Assembly (NCBI GenBank): GCA_003280965.1
Contig: QCDI01000003.1
Span: 64,001 to 128,000 of the forward strand
Origin: Prochlorococcus sp. AG-355-B18
GTDB lineage: Bacteria; Cyanobacteriota; Cyanobacteriia; PCC-6307; Cyanobiaceae
Reading direction: 5' to 3'
DNA length: 64,000 nucleotides
Part shown: positions 47,603-60,745 of the stretch, piece after piece
How positions within the stretch are numbered: the stretch's first letter is position 1
Layout: every line of letters begins with the position of its first letter
The notes under the pieces: model-generated
Told to the model about the DNA's origin: nothing
Seen by the model: the letters and a program-made list of their open reading frames with translations, nothing else
The model's database searches: none
Program-made: the position numbers and the translations under genes

Positions 47603-48004
47603 TTAGGCTGCTTTGTATTTTGATTTATCTGTTTCGTAATTATTTTTACTTGCCTTAAAATTAGGATTTGCCCACTGCAATAATCTTATAGCTAATCTTA
47701 AATCTCCTTCTAACCAGGCTCTTATAGCCATTGCTCTTCTCGGATCATAAAATTTTTGTCTTCTGTACCAGTACAAAGCATTTGCATCTGATTTATCGCC
47801 ATTACAAGAAAGACATGCTGGAACGCAGTTTTCCGTGGTACTCAAGCCACCTTGGCTACGAGGTAAAACATGGTCAATAGATTCAGATGGTTTTCCGCAA
47901 TATATACAACTTTTTCCCGTAAATCTATGAATTGATTTTCGCCATTGTCTTAATCTAAACTTAGGACATAAATCCTCTAAAAACACCGCATCATTGATAT
48001 GCAT
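47603..48004 (-). CDS. HNH endonuclease family protein
   Basis: CIYCG...IDHVLPRSQGG...NCVPACLSCNGDK. Confidence 0.9.
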   Translation of the reverse strand: MHINDAVFLEDLCPKFRLRQWRKSIHRFTGKSCIYCGKPSESIDHVLPRSQGGLSTTENCVPACLSCNGDKSDANALYWYRRQKFYDPRRAMAIRAWLEGDLRLAIRLLQWANPNFKASKNNYETDKSKYKAA

Positions 48005-51912: not shown

Positions 51913-53499
51913 ATGAGTCAAACATCTTTAAAAAAAGAACGAGATCCCTCAATATTAATTTTAGATTTTGGATCTCAATATTCTGAATTGATTGCAAGAA
52001 GAATAAGAGAAACTAATGTTTTTTCTCTTGTAGTAAGTAACTGTATTTCAATTGAGGACATTCTTAAAATTAATCCTAAAGGGATAATTTTAAGTGGGGG
52101 CCCAAATTCTGTATATGACCAAAATTCTCCTAAATGCGATGAAAAAATTTTTGATTTAGGAATTCCTATTCTTGGTATATGCTACGGAATGCAATTAATG
52201 GTTAAAGAACTTGGAGGCTCTGTCTCTTCAGCCACAAAAAAAGCTGAATATGGGAGGGCACCAATAAATATAGATTCAGAGTGTGACCTATTCTGCGATG
52301 TAGAAGATAAATCAATAATGTGGATGAGTCATGGTGATTCAATTAATTGTTTGCCGGATGGATTTAATAAAATTGCTCATACAGAGAACACACTCCATGC
52401 TGCGATTGCAAATGATAGAAAAAAATTATTTGGCGTACAATTTCATCCTGAAGTTATTCATTCAGAGTATGGGATGACGGTAATTAAAAATTTTGTTTAT
52501 AAAATCTCAACTTGTGTTGCTGATTGGACAACAGAAACCTTTTTAGAAGAAACAATTCCCAGGATAAAAGAACAAGTTGGCAATAAGAAAGTTTTGCTTG
52601 CCTTGTCAGGCGGAGTTGATTCTTCAACTCTTGCTTTTTTACTTAATGAAGCAGTTGGAAATCAGCTTACATGCATGTTTATTGACCAAGGCTTCATGAG
52701 AAAAGGTGAACCAGAATTTTTGATGAACTTTTTTGACAAGAAGTTTCATATAAAGGTTGAATATATTAATGCTAGGGAAAGGTTTATTGCCAAATTAAGG
52801 GGGATTACTGATCCAGAACAGAAAAGGAAAATTATTGGTGAAGAATTTATAAGAGTATTTGAAGAAGAAAGTAATAGATTAGGACCTTTTCATTACCTAG
52901 CGCAAGGCACTCTTTATCCTGATGTTATTGAAAGTGCTGGTACTAATATTGATCCCAAAACGGGAGAAAGAATAGCTGTAAAAATAAAGAGTCATCATAA
53001 TGTGGGGGGATTACCAAAAGATTTGCAATTTAAATTAGTTGAGCCATTAAGAAAACTTTTTAAGGACGAAGTCCGAAAATTAGGAGCTGCATTAGGTTTG
53101 CCAGATGAAATTATAAAAAGACATCCATTCCCAGGACCAGGGTTAGCGATAAGAATTTTGGGAGAAGTGACTAATGAAAAACTCGATTGTTTAAGAGATG
53201 CAGATTTGATTGTGAGAGAGGAAATAAAAAAAGCTGGTCTTTATGATGATATTTGGCAAGCATTTGCAGTTTTGCTACCGGTTAAAACTGTAGGAGTTAT
53301 GGGTGATAAAAGAACTTATTCATGGCCAATTGTTTTACGTTGTGTATCTAGTGAAGATGGTATGACAGCAGATTGGTCAAAAATTCCCTTTCAGGTTTTG
53401 GAGAGAATTTCAAATAGAATAGTAAATGAAGTAATTTTAGTAAATAGAGTTGTTTTTGATATTACAAGCAAACCTCCTGGAACTATTGAGTGGGAGTAA
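51913..53499 (+). CDS. guaA: GMP synthase (glutamine-hydrolysing)
   Basis: [37 protein letters not shown]. Confidence 0.98.
53482..53499 (+). repeat. attL core: 18-bp direct repeat formed by the guaA 3' end
   Basis: ACTATTGAGTGGGAGTAA, identical to 59942-59959. Confidence 0.93.
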
Positions 53500-53535: not shown

Positions 53536-53559
53536 TAGGTTTCACGTAGGTTTCACGTG
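53536..53559 (+). repeat. Left subterminal repeat pair 1
   Basis: TAGGTTTCACG-TAGGTTTCACG-TG. Confidence 0.92.
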
Positions 53560-53596
53560 GAATATTGGTAACCTATTTGCAACGCTTTTTGATGGC

Positions 53597-53620
53597 TAGG
53601 TTTCACGTAGGTTTCACGTG
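53597..53620 (+). repeat. Left subterminal repeat pair 2
   Basis: Exact 24-bp copy of 53536-53559, 61 bp downstream. Confidence 0.92.
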
Positions 53621-53766: not shown

Positions 53767-56256
53767 ATGCTCGATAAAGAATGTATTAGGTCAATAAAGC
53801 GTTTTCAAGATCCTTTTATTCGTAGTTTCATTTTTGATTCGAATTCTTGGTATGAGTTTGCAAGTAAAGTCAATCAACTTGGTAATGGAAGAGAACAAAA
53901 TAAAACAAAAGGAGATATCTTTGAATTATTTACTTGTTTATATCTTGCATCAGATCCAATTTTTTCATCCAAACTGGAAAGTATTTGGCATCATTCAAAT
54001 GTTCCATATCCCATAGTTGAAAAACTTGATTTACAACTTCCTGAAATTGGAATTGATTTAATTACAAAATCAAAAGATGGAGATATTTGGGCGTTTCAAT
54101 GTAAATATCATTCTGATATTAGTAAAAATGTTTCATACGAGGAGGTCTCCACTTTTTTCTCAATTACAAATAGACCTCAAACATTTAATAATATTACTCA
54201 TAGGATAATTTGTTCTTCAACATACGAGGTTAGTAAAAAAATAAGAAATGCTGAAAAAAATAAACTAGGTTATTTAACTTTTTGTGAATTTAGTCAACTT
54301 GGTAAAGAAGAGTTCTATGGTTTTCATTCCCTTTTGAAAAATGAAAAGATTAGTCTTGAGAGTTATGAACCAAGAAATCATCAGATAAATGCTATTGAAA
54401 AATCAATAAGATATTTTTCTACTGAATCAAGGGGTAAATTAGTTCATCCTTGTGGTGCTGGCAAAAGTTTAACTGGGTACTGGATATTTCGACATTTAAG
54501 CGTAAATAACACATTGATTGTTGTTCCTAGTCTTCAATTAGTCAGACAGACTCTAAAAGCATGGGCAAGAGAATTATTGTGTGATGGTGTAGAAATCGAT
54601 TGGATAGCGATATGTAGCGACGACGATGTTAGAAATGTAGATGATCCGGCGATGAATATTTCAGATATAGGAATTGAAGTTAATACAGATGTAGAGGTTA
54701 TAAGTAAATTTTTAACAAAAAAAACTAATAATAAAAAAATCGTAATTACCACATATCAAAGTGGAAAAGCGTTAATCAATGCAGCACAATTCACTAATTT
54801 CAATTTTGAACTAGGAATTTTTGATGAAGCTCATAAAACTGCAGGAAATAAAAATAAGCTCTTTGCTCAACTTCTTTATGATGAAAATATTTTTATAAAG
54901 AAAAGATTATTTATGACAGCTACTGAGAGGGTATTTAGAGGTGATTCAGATGAAACTATATCTATGGATGATGAAGTTATTTATGGAAGAATAGTTGATG
55001 AATTTTCTTTTAAATCTGCTCTAGAGCAGAAACCAAAAATTCTTTCTGATTATCAAATATCAACGACAGCTACATTTAAAAATGAAATTAAAGAATTGAT
55101 AGAAAATAATGAACTTCTGAAAGCAGGAAATAAACAATGGACATTTGAGGCAGATGCATCAACTTTTGCAGCTTTAATTACATTAAGAAAAGCAGTTCAG
55201 GAATTAAAAGTAAAACATGTAATTTCATTTCATCGAAGTATTTCAAGAGCTAGAGAATTTCAACAATTAAATGATGCAGTCAATAATTTTGGTACTAAAT
55301 TTGGGTATATTCATTCTTATCATATTAATGGAAAAAAAGGCACAGGAAAAAGGTCTGAAATAATTAATAGATTTATTTCTGAAGAACCAAGTTTAATTAC
55401 TAATGCTCGATGTTTGACGGAAGGAGTTGATATTCCTGAAGTCGATGCAGTTCTTTTTGCTGATCCAAAGGATAGTACAGTTGATATTGTACAGGCGGCA
55501 GGAAGAGCAATGAGAGTAAGTGATAATAAGGAATTAGGTTATATTCTTTTACCTGTGATGCTTGATGAAGAAGAAAATAATTCAATCGAGGATAGTGCCT
55601 TTAAACAAATTATTAAGGTGGTTTCAGCTTTAGGTATGAGCGATGAAAGGATTGTTGCAGAATTTCAAGAAATTGCTCAAGGTAATAATCCAACAGGGAG
55701 AAGAATTGTTGATATTGAGGAAGTTTTTAGTTCAATAAATTTAGAAAGCTTGTATTCGAATATAAACTTTAGAATTTGGAACAGATTGAGTTTCGCATCG
55801 AAATTTATAAATTTAAATCAAGAGATATTAATTGCTGAAATAGGAAAATCTGGTGATAGATGGAAGCAAGCTAATTTTCCACTCAAAATATGGGAAAATT
55901 ACTTTGGAGGAGATTTAAAACTTGAGAAATATATCCACTTGTATGAAGTCAATAGAAACGGTTCTCTCAACAAAAAAGTCAGTACAAAGATAGTAAAGGT
56001 TAAAAGTCAAAACTATAGAGTTGAATTAGGAGCAGTTGCAGGAATTAATTATCCTGATTCAGGTAGACCTATAGGTATCTTTAAAAAAATTTCCCAAAGT
56101 GAATTTAGATATCATATATTTATGCCAGACGATCCCATGCATCCAAATTTACTTGGTTATTTAAATATTAGGGGTAAAGGTTATGCGACATCTCTTAAAG
56201 GAGCTTTAGTTTTTTTAAATCAACTTGAATCACTTTGGCCAGATTGTCCTGTTTAG
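53767..56256 (+). CDS. Mrr-like PD-(D/E)XK nuclease-SF2 helicase fusion (Type ISP-like motor) with an uncharacterised C-terminal domain
   Basis: KGDIFE, GIDL...FQCKY nuclease; PRNHQ, PCGAGKS, DEAH, MTATER, CLTEGVDIP, DIVQAAGRAMR helicase motifs; no MTase motifs. Confidence 0.85.
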   Translation: MLDKECIRSIKRFQDPFIRSFIFDSNSWYEFASKVNQLGNGREQNKTKGDIFELFTCLYLASDPIFSSKLESIWHHSNVPYPIVEKLDLQLPEIGIDLITKSKDGDIWAFQCKYHSDISKNVSYEEVSTFFSITNRPQTFNNITHRIICSSTYEVSKKIRNAEKNKLGYLTFCEFSQLGKEEFYGFHSLLKNEKISLESYEPRNHQINAIEKSIRYFSTESRGKLVHPCGAGKSLTGYWIFRHLSVNNTLIVVPSLQLVRQTLKAWARELLCDGVEIDWIAICSDDDVRNVDDPAMNISDIGIEVNTDVEVISKFLTKKTNNKKIVITTYQSGKALINAAQFTNFNFELGIFDEAHKTAGNKNKLFAQLLYDENIFIKKRLFMTATERVFRGDSDETISMDDEVIYGRIVDEFSFKSALEQKPKILSDYQISTTATFKNEIKELIENNELLKAGNKQWTFEADASTFAALITLRKAVQELKVKHVISFHRSISRAREFQQLNDAVNNFGTKFGYIHSYHINGKKGTGKRSEIINRFISEEPSLITNARCLTEGVDIPEVDAVLFADPKDSTVDIVQAAGRAMRVSDNKELGYILLPVMLDEEENNSIEDSAFKQIIKVVSALGMSDERIVAEFQEIAQGNNPTGRRIVDIEEVFSSINLESLYSNINFRIWNRLSFASKFINLNQEILIAEIGKSGDRWKQANFPLKIWENYFGGDLKLEKYIHLYEVNRNGSLNKKVSTKIVKVKSQNYRVELGAVAGINYPDSGRPIGIFKKISQSEFRYHIFMPDDPMHPNLLGYLNIRGKGYATSLKGALVFLNQLESLWPDCPV

Positions 56257-56257
56257 G

Positions 56258-57622
56258 TTATCTACAAATAAAAAGATATTCTGAATCAAACGATATTTCT
56301 TTATTGAGAGCAGTGCGGTTAAGTTTACTATGAGAAAATTTCCCCACGGAATCTATGTCGACTTTTGAAAAAAAATTTAAAGCAATCTCTCTGATTTGAT
56401 CAATCGTCATAACTCTTGGATGTGCATTTTTCTCTGATGCATATGGTGAGTAAGAGAGGACAAGAGGTAACTTTTTTTCAGATATTTTCGAAAATAGTAA
56501 TTGGAATGCTTTTGGAGCTTGATTGCGAATACAAAAAGGTGATTGATGACGATTCTTTCTATATATCCCACGACTAAGCATGGTTTCCCCATGTGCTTTG
56601 TTTGATGAAATTTCTGGATCATCTCTCAAAGATAGAGTTTCAAGAACATGATAAAAACGACTGTAATGATCTCTTGTGTATGGAGGATCTGCGTAAATAA
56701 TGCTTTCATTGCACTCTTTAGATGAAAGGTAATCTAAGTAATCAGATCTAATTGCTTCGTGATTAAAATTTGCTGAATAATTTAAGCAAAATTTTTCAAG
56801 TGAATATAAAAAAATCTTAGTTATTGATTTATTTCTATCTTTTGATGTTTGATTGTATAAAGACTTTTTCACTTTACCTTCTTTATCACGAGGTCTTAAG
56901 GGTTGGGCAAAGTGTTTGCCGACAGTATTAACGACTTCACTTGCAGTTGCTAAAATAGCAGCAGTGAATAAATCTTTTTCTAATCCTATATAGTTTTCAG
57001 CCATATCTAATAAAGCATCAATTTCTGCAGCTTGTTTGAAAGAGAAATAAATACCACCAAAATGTCTTAATGTCATCGTAGATAAATAATTTTCTTTAGG
57101 AAATTTTTCAATTTGTTTCCAACAATTATTCATTGCTATTTGAAAATCATTTTTAATATCGTTTTTTGCGGTCATTAATGATCCGCTTTCAATCATCATT
57201 GCAAGTTGTTCTGTATCCCCATTTTTAGCCTGACTCATCAAATTTTCCTCAATTTCAATTAATGGTTCAGCTACGATTAATGATTTATGCTTATGGATAT
57301 TTTTAAGTTGATTTTCTAACTTATTTTTATTTTTTTTTATAAAAATTTTGTTATCACTTAGTAGTGCTGTGCACAATATGCGAGAGTATTCTTGGATATC
57401 AATAGCAGTTACTTTGCGCGTTTTTCCTAGCCAAGAGGAGACAGTACCTGATCCAGCAAACAAATCACATACAGGGGCATCTTTAGAGGTAATTTGATTT
57501 AAGTTAGATTCTATTTTTTCTAAAATTCTTAATTTACTTCCAAGATAATGAATAGGTCGCCATGGCTCTTGATCCTGAATTAATTTTGTTTTCCCTTTAT
57601 TAGATAAATGTTTATATGACAC
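56258..57622 (-). CDS. Alpha-class (D12-like) DNA adenine methyltransferase
   Basis: IHYLGSK, DLFAGSGTV (motif I) before IYADPPY (motif IV), YSRFYHVLETL; GTG start. Confidence 0.88.
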   Translation of the reverse strand: MSYKHLSNKGKTKLIQDQEPWRPIHYLGSKLRILEKIESNLNQITSKDAPVCDLFAGSGTVSSWLGKTRKVTAIDIQEYSRILCTALLSDNKIFIKKNKNKLENQLKNIHKHKSLIVAEPLIEIEENLMSQAKNGDTEQLAMMIESGSLMTAKNDIKNDFQIAMNNCWKQIEKFPKENYLSTMTLRHFGGIYFSFKQAAEIDALLDMAENYIGLEKDLFTAAILATASEVVNTVGKHFAQPLRPRDKEGKVKKSLYNQTSKDRNKSITKIFLYSLEKFCLNYSANFNHEAIRSDYLDYLSSKECNESIIYADPPYTRDHYSRFYHVLETLSLRDDPEISSNKAHGETMLSRGIYRKNRHQSPFCIRNQAPKAFQLLFSKISEKKLPLVLSYSPYASEKNAHPRVMTIDQIREIALNFFSKVDIDSVGKFSHSKLNRTALNKEISFDSEYLFICR

Positions 57623-57739: not shown

Positions 57740-58873
57740 GTGCACGATCCCATACAACAATTAGGTTTAATAAATCATGAGAAATATTCTCTGAAAGAGA
57801 ACGATAAATTATTTTTAGGGGAAGGTAGTCAATTATCTGCTCTAATACATGGAGATAATGATGCAGTAATTGATATAGCTAGTGAATATTTGAAAAATCA
57901 AGTTAGGTGCATTTATATTGATCCACCTTATAACAACCTTGAAGTTTATGAACATTATGAAGATCGCGATTCATATGCTGTGTGGATTAAAAAGTTGACT
58001 AATCATATTGCCCGACTTTATAAGTTATTACGTGATGACGGCAGTCTTTGGATATCTATAGATGATCGACAAATGCACTATCTCAAAGTAGCTATGGATG
58101 AGATTTTTGGTAGAAATAATTTCATTTCAACTATAGTTTGGGAGCATAGAAAAACAAGAGAAAATAGAAAGGTTTTTTCAAATAATCATGAATATATTCT
58201 TGTATACGCAAAGGATGCTGAAATTTTTAAAAAGTGTATGAATAAACTTCCTTATAATGATGAGATAAAAAAAAGATTTAAAAATCCTGATAATGATTAT
58301 CGCGGTCCATGGCAGTCAATATCTTTAAATGTACAGGCAGGACATGCTACAAAAAGTCAGTTTTATGATCTTATTGCACCAAATAGCAATATTCATAAAC
58401 CTCCCGCTGGTAGATGTTGGGTTTATTCAAAACTCAAAATTCAAAAATTAATTAGTGATAATCGCATTTGGTTTGGGCAAGATGGTAATGGAGTTCCGAG
58501 ATTAAAGAGATTCCTCAACGAAATAGATACATCCTTAACTCCGCATACTTTATGGAGAGCTGATGAAGTGGGAACTACTGAAAATGCAAAGAAAGAAATA
58601 TTAAAATTGTTTCCAGAAGAGCCGGTATTCGATACACCGAAACCTTTTCAATTGATTGATAAAATTCTCAAAATTGCTGCTAATCCTGGTGATCTAATCT
58701 TAGATAGTTTTTTAGGTTCTGGAACAACTTCCTCAGTTGCGATTCAAAATAGAATGAGATTTGTTGGAATTGAGAGAGGAAACCATATATATTCTCACTG
58801 TCATAAACGTCTTAAGCAAATTTTAAAAGAATATGATGCGCAAGTAAAATTCTTCGAACTTGTAGAAGAATAA
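57740..58873 (+). CDS. Beta-class N6/N4 DNA methyltransferase, Type III Mod-like but short
   Basis: IYIDPPYN (motif IV) before TPKP and DSFLGSGTT (motif I); FKNPDNDYRGPW segment; GTG start. Confidence 0.88.
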   Translation: MHDPIQQLGLINHEKYSLKENDKLFLGEGSQLSALIHGDNDAVIDIASEYLKNQVRCIYIDPPYNNLEVYEHYEDRDSYAVWIKKLTNHIARLYKLLRDDGSLWISIDDRQMHYLKVAMDEIFGRNNFISTIVWEHRKTRENRKVFSNNHEYILVYAKDAEIFKKCMNKLPYNDEIKKRFKNPDNDYRGPWQSISLNVQAGHATKSQFYDLIAPNSNIHKPPAGRCWVYSKLKIQKLISDNRIWFGQDGNGVPRLKRFLNEIDTSLTPHTLWRADEVGTTENAKKEILKLFPEEPVFDTPKPFQLIDKILKIAANPGDLILDSFLGSGTTSSVAIQNRMRFVGIERGNHIYSHCHKRLKQILKEYDAQVKFFELVEE

Positions 58874-58874
58874 A

Positions 58875-59426
58875 TTATTCCCAGCCATAAGGAAAGAACT
58901 TTCTACATCCACCCGAATCAACAAAGAATCCTTCTGTAGCATCTATAATAGTTTTCATTTCTTTTGATAATTTTTGTCTTCCAAATTCACTATCTTTAGT
59001 AAAAGGAATCGAATAATAATAACCTTGTGAAAGTGATGGCATTAATGCTCTTAATTTGCCAGATTTCCTATCTTTTTTTGAAGTTGCTCTCCCTAATTGA
59101 TTCCCCACAAAATTCATAAAAGGTCCTGTCCTTATCTCCTTTGTATTTTTTGTTCTTTCCTGATAGGTTTTTTCTTCGTTTAACAATTCAGGTGAATATG
59201 ATCTTGCGGTGTAATACTGACCACCATATCCATTCCAGATACCTACATAGAAACCTAAAGAAGGTTGATTTTTATAATTTAGAGATCCTATACCACCACC
59301 GGAACCAGTATATTTCAAAGTTATAGTTACATCTGGTTCTACTTCACTTGTAAGTGTGCAAATTGAGTCTGCTTTAACTAAAGGAATAACACCTAATAAA
59401 AGTGGCAAAAGTAGTAAGAGTTTCAT
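58875..59426 (-). CDS. Hypothetical secreted protein
   Basis: Signal peptide MKLLLLLPLLLGVIPLVKA; two Cys. Confidence 0.75.
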   Translation of the reverse strand: MKLLLLLPLLLGVIPLVKADSICTLTSEVEPDVTITLKYTGSGGGIGSLNYKNQPSLGFYVGIWNGYGGQYYTARSYSPELLNEEKTYQERTKNTKEIRTGPFMNFVGNQLGRATSKKDRKSGKLRALMPSLSQGYYYSIPFTKDSEFGRQKLSKEMKTIIDATEGFFVDSGGCRKFFPYGWE

Positions 59427-59785
59427 TACCTACGACGACCTAAATCAATTAACTTAGTTGTTCTTTTGCAAATATCAACTTCTATCCATTCCATATTTGC
59501 AGTATGAGTTGGCATATCCTCTTTTGACGCAACTGTATATTTACACTCATTGAAGATATCTGTTTGATAAACCCAATACCAAGGATATTTGTAATGAGTA
59601 TTACGTTCAATCCTTTTTGTAAGCATTTCCCAATAGGTGTCATTAACTAATTTAATTGCTGCTCTTTCGCCTTCAGTACATTCACCTTGCGATTCTGGGC
59701 AGGTATATTTGTGCCTTTTATATTGTTCTGTATTAGCAGGAGTACTAAAACCAAATATCAAAAACAGAAGAAATAGTTTTTTCAA
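59426..59785 (-). CDS. Hypothetical secreted Cys-containing protein
   Basis: TTG start, signal peptide MKKLFLLFLIFGFSTPANT, four Cys; TAATG coupling to the next gene. Confidence 0.7.
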   Translation of the reverse strand: MKKLFLLFLIFGFSTPANTEQYKRHKYTCPESQGECTEGERAAIKLVNDTYWEMLTKRIERNTHYKYPWYWVYQTDIFNECKYTVASKEDMPTHTANMEWIEVDICKRTTKLIDLGRRR

Positions 59786-59847: not shown

Positions 59848-59872
59848 TAGGTTTCACGTGGGTTTCACGTAG
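59848..59872 (+). repeat. Right subterminal repeat pair
   Basis: TAGGTTTCACG-TGGGTTTCACG-TAG, same orientation as the left pairs. Confidence 0.92.
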
Positions 59873-59890: not shown

Positions 59891-59941
59891 CAGGTCAAAC
59901 CCATTGATATAACTGTCTTTTTTATTCACCTCTTTGGAGGG

Positions 59942-59959
59942 ACTATTGAGTGGGAGTAA
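59942..59959 (+). repeat. attR core: duplicate of the guaA 3' end
   Basis: ACTATTGAGTGGGAGTAA; extends to 21 bp with one mismatch (GGG vs GGA). Confidence 0.93.
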
Positions 59960-60031
59960 GTTATCAAAATTTCTAAAAACTAGAGGATTTTAATTTATAC
60001 AAGAAATGTTTTTAAATTAGATTGAAACATA

Positions 60032-60745
60032 ATGAGCGAGATTATTAAACTAAGTCGATCTACTGTTGAGAAATATCTTAGTTGTCCAAGATGTTGTGTA
60101 CTTGATAAAAAATATCAAATAAAACCGCCCTCATTACCATTTACTTTAAATATAGCTGTCGATAATTTATGTAAAAATGAATTTGATCACTACAGAAGAA
60201 TTCAGGAGCCACATCCATTATTTATTGAACATGGCATTGATGCAGTTCCTTTTAAACACAAAAATTTAGAACGTTGGAGAAGTAATTTTCAAGGAATAAG
60301 ATATAAGTCAATTGAACATAATTATGATTTTGGTGGAGCTGTGGATGATATTTGGCAGAAAAAAAATGGTGATCTTATCATTATTGATGTAAAAGCAACA
60401 TCTAGAAATAATTTTGATTGGTCTGAGACTTTTAATAAGTACGAATATGCAAAAGCTTATAAGAGACAATTAGAAATGTATCAGTGGTTATTTAAAAAGA
60501 ACGGATTTAAAGTTGCCAAAGAAGCTTATCTCTTATACTTTAATGGAAAAAAAAATGAAGAGGTTTTTAATAATCAATTAAATTTTGATGTACATTTAAT
60601 TAGATTAGATTGTTCTACATCATGGGTAGAAAATAAGATAATTGATACGGTCAAATTATTGCGTTCTGATATTTTTCCCAAACCGTCATTAAATTGCGAA
60701 TACTGCAATTATTTAAAAAAACGTTGGAAATTATCAATAACTTAA
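60032..60745 (+). CDS. PD-(D/E)XK superfamily nuclease (RecB/Cas4-like) with terminal CxxC pairs
   Basis: LSRS...CPRC, GAVDDI, IIDVKAT, QLEMY, CEYC. Confidence 0.82.
   Translation: MSEIIKLSRSTVEKYLSCPRCCVLDKKYQIKPPSLPFTLNIAVDNLCKNEFDHYRRIQEPHPLFIEHGIDAVPFKHKNLERWRSNFQGIRYKSIEHNYDFGGAVDDIWQKKNGDLIIIDVKATSRNNFDWSETFNKYEYAKAYKRQLEMYQWLFKKNGFKVAKEAYLLYFNGKKNEEVFNNQLNFDVHLIRLDCSTSWVENKIIDTVKLLRSDIFPKPSLNCEYCNYLKKRWKLSIT

Follow-up and report, generated by a model that had tools for sequence, protein, structure and literature searches.

In the passages cited here, Type ISP restriction enzymes are described as translocating one way from an asymmetric site at the expense of ATP, cutting DNA upon collision and modifying one strand (PMC5737866). 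BfiI is described as a homodimer that recognizes an asymmetric site with its C-terminal B3-like domains and requires neither metal nor ATP (PMC4081073). CglI and NgoAVII pair a B3-like recognition domain with a superfamily 2 (SF2) helicase-like ATPase that is required for cleavage (PMC4267653, PMC4267654, PMC5737866), the B3 domain being carried on the phospholipase D (PLD) R-subunit and the DEAD-Z1 motor forming a separate H/N-subunit (PMC5737866), and LlaJI is reported to fuse a site-specific B3 domain to the nucleoside triphosphate (NTP)-driven motor of a restriction system (PMC7680126). Here we analyze a gene lying at 53767..56256 (+) in a 64,000-nucleotide stretch of Prochlorococcus sp. 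AG-355-B18 (contig QCDI01000003.1, positions 64,001 to 128,000; henceforth the window), whose 829-residue product joins an Mrr-type nuclease and an SF2 motor to a C-terminal domain predicted to be B3-like. From sequence and modeling we consider it likely that this domain is a recognition module by which a Type ISP-like translocase-nuclease powered by ATP would be brought to unmethylated sites, while two adjacent adenine-type methyltransferases (MTases) would protect the host DNA. Literature searches on Type ISP with B3, and on B3-like domains with helicase and Mrr restriction, yielded no description of an Mrr-SF2 motor-B3 architecture, the former returning CglI only.

The nuclease and motor parts of the protein are readily recognized. 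Pfam places Mrr_cat_2, a PD-(D/E)xK nuclease domain, at residues 62-166 (53950..54264, +; PF13156, 3.3e-16), and a regular expression detects in it the nuclease motif D97...Q111-x-K113, whose residues are invariant in the alignment with helicase-nuclease relatives. The SF2 helicase-like motor spans residues 200-638 (54364..55680, +), with Pfam matches to ResIII (200-386, 1.1e-18) and Helicase_C (473-584, 3.1e-12) and with motifs I, II, III and VI all in place (GAGKS at 230, DEAH at 353, TAT at 384 and QAAGRAMR at 576). Residues 32-638 align with residues 19-657 of LlaBIII (4xqk) at an E-value of 4.6e-48, LlaGI (5ffj) is matched at 4.1e-39, and the PADLOC model REase_MTase_IIG matches residues 44-638 at 5.4e-79 over profile positions 18-652 of 1646. 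A preliminary description of the locus had called this upstream part Type ISP-like, in agreement with the LlaBIII and REase_MTase_IIG matches.

Like LlaGI and LlaBIII, the protein thus carries an N-terminal Mrr-type nuclease followed by an SF2 motor in one chain and has its putative recognition module C-terminal to the motor, and by analogy its predicted mode of action is shared with them. Unlike these enzymes, it lacks a coupler, a gamma-class MTase and a target recognition domain (TRD), recognition being assigned instead to the predicted B3-like domain of 143 residues, and methylation would fall to two MTases on separate chains, neither of them gamma-class but D12/alpha and beta, which would probably modify both strands. 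Since Pfam finds neither an MTase domain nor a TRD behind the motor, the 829-residue protein is not a Type ISP enzyme by definition. Pfam also gives no match to a PLD domain, the Mrr nuclease and helicase standing in that place, and no Z1 domain is among its matches.

Homology and predicted fold of the C-terminal domain

The linker behind the motor (55681..55824, +) is conserved in the family, ends in ...IWNRLSFASKF and is followed by a six-residue junction, INLNQE. In the alignment, homology with the closest helicase-nuclease relatives is kept as far as ...IW(D/N)RLSFA(K/S)(S/K)F (about residues 671-680) and lost thereafter. The C-terminal domain occupies residues 687-829 (55825..56253, +), base 55825 being the first of codon 687 (ILIAEIGK...) and base 56256 the last of the stop codon. 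A domain of about 143 residues had been placed behind the linker, at 55825..56256, by the preliminary description. The motifs quoted there are all found in the translation, the domain proved to be a bounded unit of homology, and the proposed start fell within about six residues of the homology junction.

To find homologs of the domain, residues 655-829 were searched with HMMER against 1.84 billion representatives. The best match had an E-value of 4.9e-29; 422 matches reached E<=1e-3 and 264 reached E<=1e-10, while none passed E<=1e-30. The matches begin at about residues 26-33 of the query (about 680-687 of the protein) and extend to the C-terminus (query residue ~175), so that the domain aligns with the C-terminal ~145 residues of the matched proteins. 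We inspected the best 150 of the 422. Of these, 116 are at least 300 residues long (median 371 residues), and a regular expression finds an HKD-like motif upstream of the match in 111 of the 116; a Walker A motif together with a DExH motif was seen in none of the 150. Of 45 of these proteins examined with Pfam, 34 contain PLDc_2 and/or RE_NgoFVII, and the other 11 had no match. The PLD domains of BfiI (3e-6), SauUSI (5.2e-6) and R.NgoAVII (2e-4) are matched by a profile built from the family. These counts agree with the resemblance to the C-terminal part of PLD-family nucleases that the preliminary description had pointed out. Nor is the domain confined to this helicase family, which would have told against that description: PLD/HKD proteins dominate the homologs inspected.

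Among proteins of 455-1451 residues, a word-index search found the domain in only two near-identical proteins of 829 residues; among shorter proteins it found 12, named just 'phospholipase D family protein' or 'HKD family nuclease', and no named restriction enzyme was among its matches. No PADLOC or NCBIfam model covers the PLD-B3 protein in full, and members of the family gave weak matches to the PLD half only. At 34 of the 39 positions with at least 80% conservation among its relatives, the window's domain has the conserved residue. The same B3-like domain also ends two proteins without PLD or helicase, P0103 (943 residues) and P0125 (1260 residues), both of which have weak SLOG-family matches and one of which its source names 'SAV_2336 N-terminal domain-related'; the domain thus also serves in other architectures, probably conflict-related ones.

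AlphaFold2, given residues 675-829 and a 72-row alignment, returned a model with a predicted local distance difference test (pLDDT) score of 90.6 and a predicted TM-score of 0.85. Foldseek ranked against it, from the PDB, the N-domain of LlaJI.R1 (3.5e-6) and the recognition domain of BfiI with DNA (1.4e-5), followed by plant B3 domains, UbaLAI and EcoRII-N. In the VIA comparison, LlaJI.R1-N (6c5d) scored Z 12.2 over 117 aligned residues at a root-mean-square deviation (rmsd) of 2.7 and BfiI-C (3zi5) Z 12.1 over 140 residues at an rmsd of 3.4, with the BfiI entry 2c1l at Z 11.4, UbaLAI at 9.0, EcoRII-N at 8.6 and the NgoAVII B3 domain at 5.3; entries 1-28 are all B3-type, and the 29th has a Z of 3.3. 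Because the top structural matches of the model are all B3-type, residues 687-829 are assigned as a predicted B3-like DNA-binding pseudobarrel. The fold is thus, as far as the model goes, the B3-like restriction or DNA-binding fold that the preliminary description had suggested looking for with AlphaFold and Foldseek, and not a fold foreign to DNA binding. Sequence identity to BfiI-C is only about 10%, Pfam returns nothing for the isolated domain even at E<=10, and no curated B3-type sequence model in Pfam or PADLOC matches it; the relation to the B3 family is visible in the predicted fold only.

With respect to the BfiI/BmrI-type PLD Type IIS enzymes (2c1l, 3zi5), the window protein is predicted to share the C-terminal fold (Z 12.1 over 140 residues), and the PLD half of the parent family matches BfiI by profile (3e-6); the window protein itself, however, has no PLD domain but an Mrr nuclease and an ATP motor instead. 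With CglI and NgoAVII it shares the pairing of a B3-like domain with an SF2 motor, whereas its motor is Type ISP-like, its nuclease Mrr-type and all three parts are fused in one chain; the NgoAVII B3 domain is also the weaker structural match (Z 5.3). LlaJI, composed of a McrB-like R1 and a McrC-like R2, provides the best structural match and likewise fuses B3 to an NTP-driven motor, but its motor is an AAA+ protein specific for GTP, with the B3 domain at the N-terminus and the nuclease in a separate subunit. LlaJI has two MTases. Without PLD the window protein is not of the BfiI type, and with its parts fused and its motor and nuclease different it is not of the CglI/NgoAVII type either. Nearest in spirit are LlaJI and CglI, in which a B3 domain is paired with an NTP-driven motor.

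Origin of the domain and its methyltransferases

Two MTase genes follow the helicase-nuclease gene. M1 (56258..57622, -), convergent with it, encodes a D12-class (alpha motif order) N6-adenine-type MTase of 454 residues (Pfam MethyltransfD12, 1.4e-15; FAGSG at 55, DPPY at 312). M2 (57740..58873, +) encodes a beta-class N6_N4 MTase of 377 residues (Pfam N6_N4_Mtase, 1.3e-45; DPPY at 61, FLGSG at 324) and resembles the Mod-type MTases of Type III restriction-modification (RM) systems (PADLOC MTase_III, 1.3e-91). In other respects the locus is unlike Type III RM, where the nuclease of Res is C-terminal and the Mod subunit carries the TRD: the window nuclease is N-terminal, and the same M2 accompanies PLD nucleases that have no helicase.

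The preliminary description had linked the domain with MTase pairs, and this link was borne out. We scanned one genome per species with a 13-row alignment of the domain, which gave 41 loci, and compared the window proteins with all open reading frames (ORFs) of these loci by phmmer. An ortholog of M1 lies next to the PLD-B3 gene in 37 of the 41 loci, an ortholog of M2 in 37 and both in 36, with E-values of 1e-80 to 1e-178. The exceptions are five: L021 (a contig of 1981 bp), L003, L023, L038 and L041 (where the match lies at the contig edge). The helicase-nuclease part occurs in none of the 41. The best locus, L002 of Jannaschia helgolandensis, has the layout R(+) M1(-) M2(+) of the window, with identities of 54% for B3, 59% for M1 and 68% for M2. 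An annotated Acinetobacter pittii plasmid and a viral contig carry the PLD-B3, M1 and M2 trio too, and the bit scores of the three genes co-vary over the loci (Spearman 0.46-0.68, n=34, related loci not being independent). In eight loci, mostly of Bacteroidales (L019, L026-L028, L030, L032, L035 and L037), the M2 ortholog is an ORF of ~560-595 residues, against ~380 elsewhere, and carries an extra region.

This PLD-B3 cassette contributes the B3 domain and both MTases to the window, where its PLD nuclease is gone; B3, M1 and M2 were evidently acquired there as one block, laid out as in L002. The chimera proposed in the preliminary description is supported in that the domain and the MTases are shared with the PLD cassette, and none of the three outcomes named there as refuting it was observed, while the role of the domain in giving the motor-nuclease its target specificity is something we infer.

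The nuclease-motor part has a different set of relatives. Among 7991 candidates scored, 4807 match residues 1-650 at E<=1e-3; most of them are 750-785 residues long, and others carry HA domains. Representatives of the ~780-residue family include P0159-P0276 and the genes at L055 8631-10961, L056 7864-10194 and L057 7724-10060. In the alignment, these relatives share, after about residue 680, an unrelated tail of ~95 residues, predicted to form six helices (pLDDT 85.8). Foldseek found no match to the tail at E<=1e-3; the wide VIA comparison placed the N-terminal domain of XerD first (Z 8.9, 82 residues aligned), with tyrosine-recombinase core-binding domains numerous in its top rows, a likeness of the modeled tail that is only suggestive. 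Because conservation stops at about residue 680 and the relatives carry an unrelated tail beyond it, one probable DNA-binding module seems to have given way to another precisely at the domain border, as the preliminary description had supposed in calling the domain swapped in.

The gene is also a mosaic within its conserved part. Compared with P0159 (780 residues, without B3), identity is 97% over residues 1-360 and 50-80% from there on; compared with P0008, the other B3-bearing variant, it is ~55% over residues 1-350, with only three differences over residues 361-829. The breakpoint lies near the DEAH motif, at residue ~350-365 (53767-54850 versus 54850-56256), and recombination seems to have taken place at this conserved region.

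Proposed mechanism and alternatives

Since the B3-like domains of BfiI read an asymmetric site, and Type ISP enzymes translocate from an asymmetric site and cut on collision, we propose the following scheme. The parent cassette would be a BfiI-like Type IIS RM system with an asymmetric site, each strand of which is methylated by one MTase. Recombination at the domain boundary would have placed its B3 domain behind an Mrr nuclease and SF2 motor, in replacement of the PLD nuclease. In the resulting protein, the B3 domain would bind the unmethylated site, the motor would hydrolyze ATP and translocate on double-stranded DNA, and the Mrr nuclease would cut at a distance from the site, much as Type ISP enzymes do after collision. 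M1 and M2 would each methylate one strand of the site, and the host would thereby be protected.

Several points weigh against this scheme. The fusion is rare: the B3 domain is present in 1 of 285 genomes of the genus, that of the window itself, and the fusion occurs in two protein clusters only, of 29 and 5 members. One of the five departures at the 39 conserved positions is G812, where 94% of the relatives have Arg. Solved Type ISP enzymes couple recognition to the motor by way of a coupler and an MTase-TRD, and by comparison with them the ability of a grafted B3 domain to do so is conjectural; the fold of the domain and its role in DNA binding are themselves predicted. Relatives of the N-part are found in 20 of 151 genomes of the genus, and three ~780-residue relatives there adjoin unrelated systems (Type III RM in G076; BREX brxL/pglZ/pglX in G105) or stand alone (G128), without a dedicated MTase, so the native trigger of the family may be something other than site recognition.

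This last point, with the existence of relatives that have neither a B3 domain nor adjacent MTases, could mean that the B3-like domain plays no more than an accessory part, as a tether or allosteric effector, that the enzyme is triggered as its ~780-residue relatives are, and that its targets would not be set by M1 and M2. EcoRII has such an accessory or effector domain in its B3-like N-domain, which is among the structural matches (Z 8.6). We nevertheless regard this explanation as unlikely: B3, M1 and M2 occur together in 36 of the 41 loci and form a block laid out as in L002, and, besides the B3-like domain, no candidate sequence-reading domain is seen in the 829-residue chain by Pfam.

The rarity of the fusion (1 of 285 genomes), the change of a 94%-conserved Arg to Gly and the readiness with which this gene family recombines would also suit a recent recombination accident, which inactivated a PLD-B3 RM system and left two orphan MTases beside a motor-nuclease with an inert appendage. 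Against such an accident, which we think quite improbable, the 829-residue frame is intact with all motifs in place, and the same C-terminal half (three differences over residues 361-829) is found on two N-terminal halves that are ~55% identical. The clusters of 29 and 5 members derive from several contigs. One metagenome contig has the fusion and carries the same three genes at 98.8% identity; the search patterns came from one protein, so only close relatives were detectable. Between this contig and the window, the ratio of nonsynonymous to synonymous change (pN/pS) is 0.17 for the N-part, 0.05 for B3 (one nonsynonymous and five synonymous changes), 0.23 for M1 and 0.09 for M2, values far below 1, albeit from few changes.

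Finally, although many stand-alone nuclease-NTPase defense proteins are modification-dependent and the helicase-nuclease has weak PADLOC mREase_IV matches (1.4e-7), a Type IV-like enzyme whose B3 domain reads a methylated site is barely credible. M1 and M2, which are inherited with it, presumably methylate the genome of the cell, and the enzyme would attack the very DNA that encodes it; moreover, the same B3-M1-M2 trio accompanies a PLD nuclease in a classical RM layout.

We thus favor a B3 domain that would direct the motor-nuclease to unmethylated sites. Whether the locus goes further and represents a new class, in which a single-chain nuclease-translocase with a plug-in B3 domain and two free-standing MTases was made by module swap, and in which the C-terminal slot of the family accepts DNA-targeting modules in general, be it an integrase core-binding-like tail, HA repeats or B3, is in our judgment evenly balanced.

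The guaA site and the wider meaning of the fusion

The three genes lie, with two small ORFs, in ~6.46 kb between guaA and a gene for a 237-residue PD-(D/E)xK protein. In two genomes of the same genus (G021 and G015), guaA is directly followed by the 237-residue gene, and synteny with both resumes at about 59933-60044; in a third genome, an acyltransferase occupies the site behind guaA. The insertion is framed by a 21-nucleotide direct repeat (repeat family D6, read in the sequence), whose left copy (53479..53499, +) is the 3' end of guaA including the stop codon and whose right copy (59939..59959, +), identical at 20 of 21 positions, marks the right edge. Just inside the left border, a tandem decamer, GGTTTCACGT-A-GGTTTCACGT, is present in two copies (repeat family D1; 53538..53619, +, at 53538-53558 and 53599-53619), and repeat and motif searches revealed a third just inside the right border (59850..59870, +). 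These are the only three occurrences in the 1.58-Mb genome, where the reversed control pattern has none. In G021, the 'empty' site (L059 3550-3701) still shows the repeat in a second, degenerate copy, together with a related motif in tandem.

No integrase is encoded in the 6.46-kb island, and at 30-32% the cassette has the same GC content as the host. The site resembles a hotspot of site-specific integration, though not one located at a tRNA gene. We did not file the island as a tycheposon: the attachment sites of tycheposons are tRNA genes, and the main text of the tycheposon preprint contains neither 'guaA' nor 'restriction'.

The two small cargo ORFs (58875..59785, -), of 183 residues (58875-59426) and 119 residues (59426-59785), have no Pfam or NCBIfam match except a weak one to DUF6678. 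Their homologs (91% and 80% identity) adjoin the 776-residue helicase-nuclease relative in G076, on its other side, and the pair may be a module travelling with the helicase-nuclease family. The 237-residue protein at 60032-60745 (+) is Cas4-like, and its gene keeps this position in relatives whether or not they have the island; it is a core gene bordering the hotspot. Further upstream, before the region studied, 47603-48004 (-) is a small ORF for an HNH endonuclease of 133 residues.

The comparisons brought to light a very large family of ~780-residue helicase-nucleases and an uncharacterized but widespread cassette of PLD-B3 protein, D12 MTase and beta MTase, present in 41 species-level genomes, on a plasmid and on a viral contig of the collections searched. 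They join lines that have been studied apart, namely Type ISP enzymes, BfiI-type PLD enzymes and the B3-plus-motor systems CglI/NgoAVII and LlaJI. If the proposed reading is true, the window holds a natural case of a Type ISP motor-nuclease uncoupled from its MTase-TRD and re-aimed by a B3 domain of 143 residues, which would raise the question of how target recognition switches on translocation. Restriction systems, in this light, evolve through the exchange of whole modules at domain borders.

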